From the UHGV virus genome UHGV-1634937: 22,898 bases of DNA. One strand, written 5' to 3'. Positions 21,326 through 21,545 of this stretch are shown in pieces (within the stretch, counting starts at the first letter, position 1; the number at the start of each line of letters is the position of its first letter). The notes beneath the pieces were generated by a model. That model ran no database searches and had not been told where the DNA came from. It saw only the letters and a program-made list of their open reading frames with translations. The DNA comes from a virus. A program made the position numbers and the translations under genes.

Positions 21326-21351
21326 AAAAAAACGCCCACCCGAAGATGGGC
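21326..21351 (-). terminator. intrinsic terminator (minus strand) with UUCG tetraloop
   Basis: Minus-strand RNA reads GCCCAUC UUCG GGUGGGC G UUUUUUU; on the plus strand the same hairpin is preceded by an A-run, so orientation is minus-specific. Confidence 0.6.
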
Positions 21352-21528
21352 AAACTGGAAGCTCGTAACGCACTTCGGTGTTGCCACTTAGGCGTATGGT
21401 CAACCTGGCAACTCGGCGTCATGAGGGGGAAGGAGTCACTACCCCGCCATACTTGCCGCCGCGCCTGTCGCGGCTAACAGCTAAATCGCTCTATAAATCA
21501 CGATTCATTGAGGCGATATTACACTAAT

Positions 21529-21545
21529 AAATTTATTAGAGCAAT
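21529..21545 (-). promoter_or_regulatory. C1-operator-like site, perfect 17/17, with overlapping promoter
   Basis: Minus-strand reading ATTGCTCTAATAAATTT; -35 TTGCTC (21544-21539), 17-bp spacer, -10 TAATAT (21521-21516); overlaps the last codons and stop of the methyltransferase gene. Confidence 0.6.

Follow-up and report, generated by a model that had tools for sequence, protein, structure and literature searches.

A conserved RNA domain in the leader of the P1 ban operon that also precedes the small RNA DicF

The DNA analysed here, a 22,898-nt stretch of the virus genome UHGV-1634937 (hereafter, the window), carries between dmt and trnA an interval, 21326–21545, that starts with a repressor operator and a promoter and ends with a strong intrinsic terminator; all relevant genes are on the minus strand. 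The arrangement raises the question of what is transcribed from the interval: that is, whether the interval is a small-RNA gene that ends at the terminator, or the leader of an operon whose genes lie beyond the terminator. The original prediction, made from the letters of the window, proposed a repressor-controlled small RNA and, as an alternative, a leader that precedes the tRNA cluster and ends in a terminator.

Sequence comparison indicates that the dmt-to-tRNA stretch is 97% identical to the corresponding stretch of P1, P7, RCS47, and JL22, and that the window therefore is from a P1-like phage-plasmid. Judged from its sequence, the interval almost certainly is the start of the P1 ban operon: that is, the Op72/P1ban leader. 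It is the same locus as the Op72ab (Oban) locus of P1 and P7 (NC_005856, 68667–68892), with identical operator and promoter letters and with the same placement, at the dmt 3′ end and ahead of trnA, trnT, and ban. At the corresponding place, the P1 record NC_005856 marks Op72ab, P1ban, and a "dicF-like region", and the P7 record AF503408 notes that the tRNA genes and ban are under control of the same operator. Over the 246-nt interval, the window leader is ~90% identical to the P1 leader, and its core (the cassette of helices P3 and P4, below) is of the P7 type. The promoter, the operator, and the "dicF-like" label are already known. The features at the start of the interval are as follows.

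21545–21529, minus strand: C1 operator half-site Op72a (Obana), ATTGCTCTAATAAATTT, with 0 mismatches to the 17-bp asymmetric consensus; equal to the annotated P1 feature.
21518–21534, plus strand: second, inverted C1 half-site Op72b, ATTACACTAATAAATTT, with 2 mismatches; forms palindrome I2 with Op72a.
21538–21536, minus strand: dmt stop codon TAA, inside the C1 operator.
21516–21544, minus strand: sigma-70 promoter P1ban, with −35 element TTGCTC at 21544–21539, a 17-nt spacer, and −10 element TAATAT at 21521–21516.

A perfect C1-type 17-mer over TTGCTC-N17-TAATAT had been predicted at the dmt 3′ end; the match is exact, and the two elements are identical to Op72ab and P1ban of phage P1. The −35 element sits within Op72a, and the promoter is, base for base, the one annotated "sigma 70 promoter P1ban" in NC_005856. 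The second, inverted half-site at 21518–21534 had been overlooked; with Op72a, it makes the operator bivalent (Op72ab). The window contains 6 operator-like sites with 3 or fewer mismatches, as compared to 0.08 expected. A generic sigma-70 scan missed P1ban, because P1ban matches just 7 of 12 consensus positions. According to the P1 and P7 annotation, P1ban is repressor-controlled by C1 and initiates transcription at this site. The minus-strand sequence of the interval reads ...ATATTGCTCTAATAAATTTATTAGTGTAATATCGCCTCAATG..., with a transcription start predicted at ~21509, so placed from the sequence. The predicted transcript from P1ban to the terminator is ~184 nt long, and the distance from the −10 element to the terminator hairpin is 165 nt.

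Folding, sequence scanning, and comparison resolve the leader into four parts: a 5′ hairpin, a pseudoknotted domain, a linker of low conservation, and a strong intrinsic terminator.

21483–21509, minus strand: leader 5′ hairpin (AAUGAAUCG...CGAUUU), from the minimum-free-energy fold.
21378–21482, minus strand: conserved pseudoknotted RNA domain, ~105–115 nt, from the covariance model and covariation.
21352–21379, minus strand: variable linker ACCGAAGUGCGUUACGAGCUUCCAGUUU, with just a weak local hairpin predicted.
21351–21334 (hairpin) and 21332–21326 (U7), minus strand: intrinsic terminator GCCCAUC-UUCG-GGUGGGC, G, U7, from sequence scan and fold.

Folding of the interval, which the original prediction had called for, yields the 5′ hairpin. 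This hairpin is almost invariant over 26 distinct P1-like sequences and may serve to stabilise the RNA. The terminator proved to be real and is a strong one: the predicted hairpin, GCCCATC-TTCG-GGTGGGC followed by T7, is found where expected, 165 nt past the −10 element, has a free energy of −11.3 kcal/mol with a 7-bp stem (8 bp including a flanking U-G pair), and ranks second among terminator-like sites in 20 kb. The hairpin is identical in all P1-like loci examined but one (L199, with GGGUG for GGGCG). The further claim that the interval has no ORF with a ribosome-binding site was borne out when the ORFs were checked, none having a Shine-Dalgarno sequence. A coding function was rejected: the one minus-strand ORF that begins with ATG (21422) is not kept in P1, and frequent 1-nt indels in P4 rule out coding.

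The structured domain has five helices, which we derived from 27 diverse copies and on which we built a covariance model, R1. The model recovers 82 copies, 69 of them distinct, and matches the window at 21356–21485 with 104.5 bits (E=1e-32). The helices, all on the minus strand, are as follows.

Position within the domain outermost, minus strand: helix P1, GUUGUGG with CCACAAC, weak in P1-like phages.
21474–21458, minus strand: hairpin P2, CCGCG with CGCGG, from the five-helix model.
21452–21447 with 21399–21394, minus strand: helix P3, GUAUGG with CCAUAC, its 3′ strand in the P5 loop.
21445–21426, minus strand: variable hairpin P4, which holds the C/U-rich tract CUCCUUCCCCC.
21412–21406 with 21386–21380, minus strand: hairpin P5, GUUGCCA with UGGCAAC (family pattern GUUGYCA/UGRCAAC).

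Since the 3′ strand of P3 lies inside the loop of P5, the fold is a pseudoknot. Pairing holds for 94.2% of cells over the 69 distinct sequences, and compensatory changes on both sides are seen in 11 of 33 pairs. None of 500 shuffles reaches these values, and control alignments with slid 3′ partners are 33–56% paired; the alignment behind these values was fitted by R1, and the P3 3′ strand was partly fixed by the search pattern. For an unbiased check of P3, copies were re-collected by variation in the 5′ strand. P3 has two common states, GTATGG/CCATAC (125 loci) vs. GCATGG/CCATGC (75 loci, the P1 lineage), which separate the P1 lineage from the P7 lineage and differ at two positions ~50 nt apart; the support for P3 amounts to one compensatory event. 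P4 is rebuilt with different letters among the copies: CGGGG/CCCCG, CUGGGG/CUCCAG, CAGGUG/CACCUG, CAGGG/CCCUG, and CCCGGG/CCCGGG. In P5, the one base for which all four nucleotides are seen in the 26 distinct P1-like sequences is a predicted mismatch. The G-U pairs of the fold assign the RNA to the strand that is sense for ban and dicB. We conclude that the domain very probably is a real, conserved RNA structure.

Folded singly, the sequence shows no unusual stability (z = −1.6), and single-sequence folds miss the covariation model because of the pseudoknot. The original prediction had also proposed an Rfam/Infernal scan; the scan finds no known RNA family in 21326–21545 at the gathering threshold or at E≤10, apart from a lone match to CcsR1, at chance level (E=4.4), that falls on the C/U-rich tract, and the structured domain is absent from Rfam. 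An additional pairing, between the P4 loop and the purine-rich linker (UCCUU/GAGGA), was considered and rejected: it occurs in Qin-type copies and is absent from P1, P7, Erwinia, and Trabulsiella.

The distribution of the domain connects the P1 leader to the DicF locus. In BLAST comparisons, the segment ~21473–21376 matches chromosomal loci of E. coli at ~82% identity in 4430 of 5426 complete genomes, at 1–8 places in each and 9,536 in all, and the Qin-type matches lie between ydfC and dicB. In one Qin-type locus (L003), the outer helix of the domain ends at 3104 and DicF, as located with Rfam, occupies ~3121–3173, so that the two are 16 nt apart; the shared segment ends upstream of DicF, and the homology therefore is to the DicF 5′ flank (~115 nt), not to DicF. 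Consistent with this, the DicF model (RF00039) has no match in the window at its gathering threshold (48 bits) or at E≤10, and scores 75–77 bits in Qin-type loci in the same search. The identification of the P1 "dicF-like region" as DicF thus is rejected, the region failing the DicF covariance model even at E≤10. That region (68791–68892) maps to the part of the leader from P5 through just beyond the terminator; its annotation omits the upstream half of the domain, does not name the terminator, and is silent on the absence of mature DicF. Among the papers covered by a literature search, none gives transcript evidence for, or describes, a P1 small RNA at the ban leader site.

A search with an internal 16-mer brought together 120 viral loci with 18 species genomes, Trabulsiella, Citrobacter, Erwinia, and Serratia among the latter. 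The collected loci show a constant element of ~115 nt and then a variable terminator hairpin, which is either classical DicF, one of at least 8 DicF-like alleles, or the P1-specific GCCCAUC-UUCG-GGUGGGC. The P1 terminator, that is, occupies the DicF slot of Qin-type prophages, behind the same domain in an early operon. The DicF locus (Qin dicB operon) and the P1 leader both are in repressor-controlled early operons with the same ~115-nt domain at ~82% identity, and both have an intra-operon intrinsic terminator that has to be read through for downstream genes. They differ in the hairpin, which in DicF has an 11-nt loop with ACUCC and in P1 has a UUCG tetraloop and another sequence, and in the position of the domain, which is 36 nt past the inferred start in the P1 leader and ~1 kb into the operon in Qin.

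The occupation of the DicF slot bears on the alternative that the interval is a stand-alone, C1-repressed, trans-acting small RNA (of ~184 nt, or a ~50-nt 3′ fragment), a DicF analogue with a pyrimidine-rich seed, for which read-through of the terminator would be incidental. The repressor-controlled promoter and the strong terminator, with the U7 of a typical Hfq-binding 3′ end, fit this alternative, as does a terminator whose position coincides with the DicF slot and which follows the same upstream domain. Other alleles of the slot have pyrimidine-rich hairpin loops like the ACUCC of DicF, the P1 linker holds GCUUCCAG, which is similar to the loop of the 2H10-type allele, and the P4 loops are pyrimidine-rich (UCCUU or UCCUC) despite sequence change. 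However, the C/U-rich tract CUCCUUCCCCC, proposed as a seed to pair with Shine-Dalgarno sequences, is present at 21436–21426, and its pyrimidine richness recurs in most P4 variants; it is not a free anti-Shine-Dalgarno seed, being the loop and the 3′ strand of the covarying helix P4 and hence partly paired. The linker, which by the predicted fold is the only plausible single-stranded stretch and the candidate seed of a DicF-type 3′ fragment, is the least conserved segment of the leader in P1-like phages, with substitutions, a 4-nt TCCA indel, and all four nucleotides at the base after P5, unlike a typical small-RNA seed. The loop of the terminator is simply a UUCG tetraloop, and the leader lacks both homology to DicF and any significant match in Rfam. 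The duplex energy of the P1 module with the ftsZ start region is no better than that of shuffles, in a test that also failed to separate DicF itself. In addition, the operator is annotated for the tRNA genes and ban, which implies that read-through is functional. The stand-alone small-RNA gene, as first put forward, therefore is left without support by the location of CUCCUUCCCCC in P4, the variability of the linker, and the absence of DicF, and we regard a small RNA of this kind as unlikely to be the main product of the locus. The other reading first offered, a terminated leader before the tRNA cluster, agrees with the P1 and P7 annotation and with the finding of no other promoter-like site before the tRNAs.

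The need for read-through in a terminated leader follows from what lies beyond the terminator. A sigma-70 scan detects no promoter-like site between the terminator and the tRNA genes, and, according to the P1 and P7 records, the operator controls the tRNA genes and ban; their transcription therefore depends on polymerase passing the U7 terminator. The first minus-strand ORF with a Shine-Dalgarno sequence starts at 19778, leaving ~1.7 kb past the terminator with no supported ORF. P1 bac-1 lysogens express ban constitutively, from which it would follow that read-through does not need other C1-repressed phage proteins. The elements found in this stretch and beyond are as follows.

21323–21145, minus strand: unannotated, conserved tmRNA-like RNA, 178 nt, directly after the terminator.
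20860–20785, minus strand: tRNA-Asn, from ARAGORN and Rfam.
20782–20707, minus strand: tRNA-Thr, from ARAGORN and Rfam.
19932–19812: STnc100-like element, similar to an element that Qin has between dicF and dicB.
18706–18631, minus strand: tRNA with CAU anticodon, from ARAGORN and Rfam.

Several observations on these elements stand apart from the question of the leader. The tmRNA-like RNA has a 5′ segment similar to the 5′ end of tmRNA and at 21264–21232 reads AUAAAU followed by GCA AAC GAU GAU CUG AUG AUG GUA GCG GCC UAA: that is, a predicted tag, ANDDLMMVAA, and a stop. Homologues in unrelated phages keep the frame with changed codons, giving ANDDVVLMAA (Pollock, 6947, PD38), ANDNTFLAVA (FEC14), ANDNEFKVAA (phiEa2809), ANEEMYLAVA (HK633), and ANDDLMMAAA (P7), and 292 phage records match the RNA, mostly with no annotation at that place. 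In the consensus fold, the stop codon is in a hairpin and is followed by a covarying hairpin. At 21323–21145, Rfam tmRNA models match below threshold only and ARAGORN makes no call, and the 3′ tRNA-like half was not found. To either side of the tRNA genes are long hairpin cassettes with the pattern CACAAC(A)GGUAAGGG...CCCUUACCGUUGUG, one of which encloses a mini-helix like a tRNA acceptor stem and T-arm. The STnc100-like element recurs farther downstream of the domain in both the P1 operon and the DicF locus; in P1, unlike in Qin, ~1.4 kb of tmRNA-like RNA, tRNAs, and hairpin cassettes lie between the terminator and this element.

The coupling of domain and terminator is general. The domain is followed by a terminator in all loci with enough flank (213/213; 107 distinct downstream sequences, ~40 hairpin types), where a terminator was called as a hairpin of −10.7 kcal/mol or lower followed by a T-run, and where the T-run starts 39–121 nt past P5. 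In the window, the terminator lies 28 nt past the domain. By inspection across terminator types, no conserved alternative pairing of the domain with the terminator arms is present. A riboswitch-type attenuator, in which the domain would be an aptamer for a ligand or factor that decides whether the terminator hairpin forms, would fit a compact pseudoknotted fold directly ahead of an intrinsic terminator in a leader; we consider such an attenuator very improbable, given terminators that vary in spacing and type with no conserved alternative pairing to the domain, no match to an Rfam riboswitch, and a range limited to enterobacterial prophages and P1-like elements.

The terminator also could simply end dmt transcripts. 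More fully stated, this alternative is that the terminator mainly ends the hrdC-dmt unit and insulates ban, that transcription from P1ban passes the terminator by leakiness, and that the domain is a stability or processing element (a 3′-end protector, or a platform for RNase E or RNase III) that leaves termination unaffected. The terminator does lie ~185–210 nt past the dmt stop with no other terminator between, and the leader 5′ hairpin suggests control of stability. In Qin, the domain is downstream of ydfABC, and the DicF 5′ end, which reportedly is generated by RNase E, comes 16 nt after the domain. Nevertheless, phages 2H10 and cdtI keep the domain-terminator pair in a pL leader with no upstream operon gene, a covarying ~110-nt pseudoknotted fold is elaborate for a mere cleavage guide, and the association with a terminator has no exception among the 213 loci; we rate this alternative as distinctly unlikely, below the stand-alone small RNA.

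The setting of the pair in lambdoid phages is consistent with a role in read-through. 2H10 and cdtI have, in succession, cI with its terminator, pL (TTGACA-16-CATAAT), 290 nt, the domain, the terminator, and the first early-left ORF, with no N gene between pL and that ORF. In Tritos and Qin, the domain comes after three small ORFs and before DicF and dicB, with no N gene between CI/DicA and the domain. Few further terminators are predicted in the early-left operons of 2H10 and Tritos, and processive antitermination therefore is not clearly needed for intrinsic terminators; termination of the untranslated RNA by Rho may instead be the reason for antitermination.

RNAs with such a function are known: putL and putR of HK022, and the putL-like RNA of HK639, are cis-acting antiterminator RNAs of N-less lambdoid phages that give read-through independent of terminator sequence (PMC9378689). 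The put RNAs and the domain are alike in being structured RNAs of 70–126 nt in an early operon, between promoter and first terminator, in phages that lack an N gene there. Homology was rejected: with filters off, R1 has no match at the HK639 putL-like RNA (34187–34312) or in HK022 24000–32000 (best unrelated score, 10.9 bits), and the folds differ, put having two stem-loops in ~70 nt and the domain a pseudoknotted multi-helix fold. Put-like action of the domain thus would be by analogy, not homology. Whereas put acts through the RNA polymerase beta-prime zinc-binding domain, put-like action of the domain is putative, and the domain is present in a single copy, with none found in the right operon. 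It is conceivable, and in our estimation rather unlikely, that the domain represents a third, unrecognised class of cis-acting antitermination RNA for E. coli RNA polymerase, with put-like function and unrelated sequence and fold. Lambdoid prophages that lack N at this position (Qin, 2H10, cdtI, and Stx2c types), and P1 as well, would then rely on it to carry transcription past a small-RNA terminator of their own and across long untranslated arrays of RNA genes. On this view, the P1 ban leader and the dicF locus would be variants of a single cassette that joins an antiterminator to a small RNA.

The explanation that we favour, at about even confidence, is that the interval is a terminated, or attenuated, operon leader, and that the domain probably controls either read-through or the maturation of the RNA, with a small RNA of the DicF type as a possible by-product. 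Upon inactivation of C1, RNA polymerase would start near 21509. Part of the polymerases would stop at 21332–21326 and release the ~184-nt RNA, which RNase E might trim to a DicF-style 3′ fragment of ~50 nt. Other polymerases would read through, to transcribe ~1.7 kb with the tmRNA-like RNA, tRNA-Asn, tRNA-Thr, and the hairpin cassettes, and then ban. The domain would set, in cis, the share of transcription that passes the terminator, in a manner comparable to HK022 put RNA. The P1 leader as predicted resembles StxS, a short RNA from early termination downstream of PR′ of Stx phage (PMC7547250), in having an intrinsic terminator just past a regulated phage promoter, with read-through giving a long operon transcript; it differs from StxS in having no known antiterminator protein and in that the conserved part is the upstream domain, not a seed.

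Within this favoured explanation, specific control of read-through by the domain is a tentative proposal, drawn by analogy and falling short of even confidence. We prefer a cis-acting read-through role because the domain always comes with a terminator, at whatever spacing and of whatever sequence, because no conserved alternative pairing links the domain and the terminators, and because long stretches without translation follow the domain, in phages that have no N gene there. The location of the domain in Qin, well inside the operon and not at its start, speaks against such a role. Second comes a part in maturing the 5′ end of the small RNA that the terminator carries, because the 5′ end of DicF follows the domain so closely.

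Measured against the annotations and Rfam 15, three results appear to be new: the homology of the P1 leader to the structured domain upstream of DicF, the covariation-supported and very widespread fold, and the invariable coupling of the fold to a small-RNA terminator cassette. The 20-year-old "dicF-like region" of P1 accordingly can be re-read as the conserved partner element that precedes DicF, not as DicF. A covarying RNA that is present in ~80% of complete E. coli genomes, often in several copies, has stood outside Rfam, always coupled to a terminator that yields DicF or an allelic variant. If the domain controls read-through or small-RNA maturation, this would explain how dicB, and the P1 tRNA genes and ban, are expressed past a strong internal terminator, how the early-left operon of lambdoid phages runs with no N in the pL leader, and why, behind a platform that stays constant, alleles of the small RNA are exchanged as cassettes.

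The segment that follows the ban leader terminator contains a tmRNA-like RNA with no existing annotation:

21323-21145, minus strand: tmRNA-like RNA, with its tag frame at 21264-21232.

The 5' segment of this RNA is similar to the 5' end of tmRNA, the tag frame (AUAAAU/GCAAACGAU...) reads ANDDLMMVAA-stop, and a covarying hairpin or pseudoknot lies 3' of the frame. Other members of the family carry the tags ANDDVVLMAA, ANDNTFLAVA, ANDNEFKVAA, ANEEMYLAVA, and ANDDLMMAAA; members are found in phages of the N4-like, Ackermannviridae, T1-like, and HK97-like groups as well as in P1 and P7, with matches in 292 phage records. 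ARAGORN made no call at 21323-21145, Rfam tmRNA models gave only sub-threshold matches there, and a search for a 3' tRNA-like half of this RNA found none. The 5' end lies 3 nt past the U-tract of the terminator. In two P1-like plasmids, NZ_CP101271 (L147) and NZ_CP148467 (L148), an annotated TnpB gene (RNA-guided endonuclease family) starts ~150 nt past the terminator, which places the start within the tmRNA-like unit or at its end.

Four long hairpin cassettes, with a common stem, CACAAC(A)GGUAAGGG / CCCUUACCGUUGUG, are also present:

21144-21064, minus strand: hairpin cassette.
20705-20619, minus strand: hairpin cassette.
~20490-20418, minus strand: hairpin cassette.
~20007-19924, minus strand: hairpin cassette.

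The cassettes flank the tRNA genes, and GUGAAUGCG often follows a cassette. The cassette 3' of tRNA-Thr holds a mini-helix that resembles the acceptor stem and T-arm of a tRNA or tmRNA (GGGUAUUUUG...GGGUUCGAAUCCCUACGAAGUACCC), and cassettes of similar kind are found in phages 6947 and HK633. In P1 the other strand of this stretch is annotated with plp and upl; the plp annotation, which overlaps trnT, looks doubtful.

Farther downstream lie an STnc100-like element and two ORFs:

19812-19932, minus strand: STnc100-like element (Rfam STnc100, sub-threshold, 37.8 bits, E=4e-6).
Within 18734-19778, minus strand: 78-aa hydrophobic ORF and 275-aa ORF.

The two ORFs, the second of which has a lipoprotein-type signal sequence (MKKTLISAAIILGSLCLTGC...), occupy the position held in P1 by tciA, tciB, and tciC, and the replacement is an apparent cargo swap inside the ban operon. 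The STnc100-like element sits just upstream of the 78-aa membrane-protein ORF (19778-19542). Qin carries it too (34.1 bits), between dicF and dicB; in lambdoid prophages, therefore, the DicF slot has the conserved pseudoknotted domain of the leader on one side and the STnc100-like element on the other. In P1-like phages the slot between these two features is ~1.4 kb larger.

Leaders at other loci show two further variations:

Equivalent to the window P3/P4 junction near 21446: insertion site in L014, a P1-like IMG/VR contig.
L240 (phage 2H10), 4176-4270: second conserved untranslated segment.
L142 (Erwinia tracheiphila), ~4735-4800: second conserved untranslated segment.

The 23-nt insertion in L014, which contains a G11 run (GGCGGGGGGGGGGGCGACTCCCTGAC), stems either from a sequencing artefact or from duplication of the P4 5' arm. 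The second segment of 2H10-type leaders (ACAAAACAGAGAAGAGCAUCAYCGGRCGACGGGCUCAUAACCCAAUCCAYCCGGGCG...) comes after the terminator and forms a long hairpin ahead of the first ORF.

At the dmt edge of the window, an inverted repeat is present:

22694-22748 and 22844-22898: perfect 55-nt inverted repeat, located in the open reading frame of dmt.

The outer arm stops exactly at the window edge (22898), and the window upstream of ~22654 has no similarity to P1 or P7 dmt. Possible explanations are an assembly artefact of the fold-back type and an N-terminal methyltransferase module of a different kind.

The tmRNA-like RNA may be more novel than the ban leader itself.
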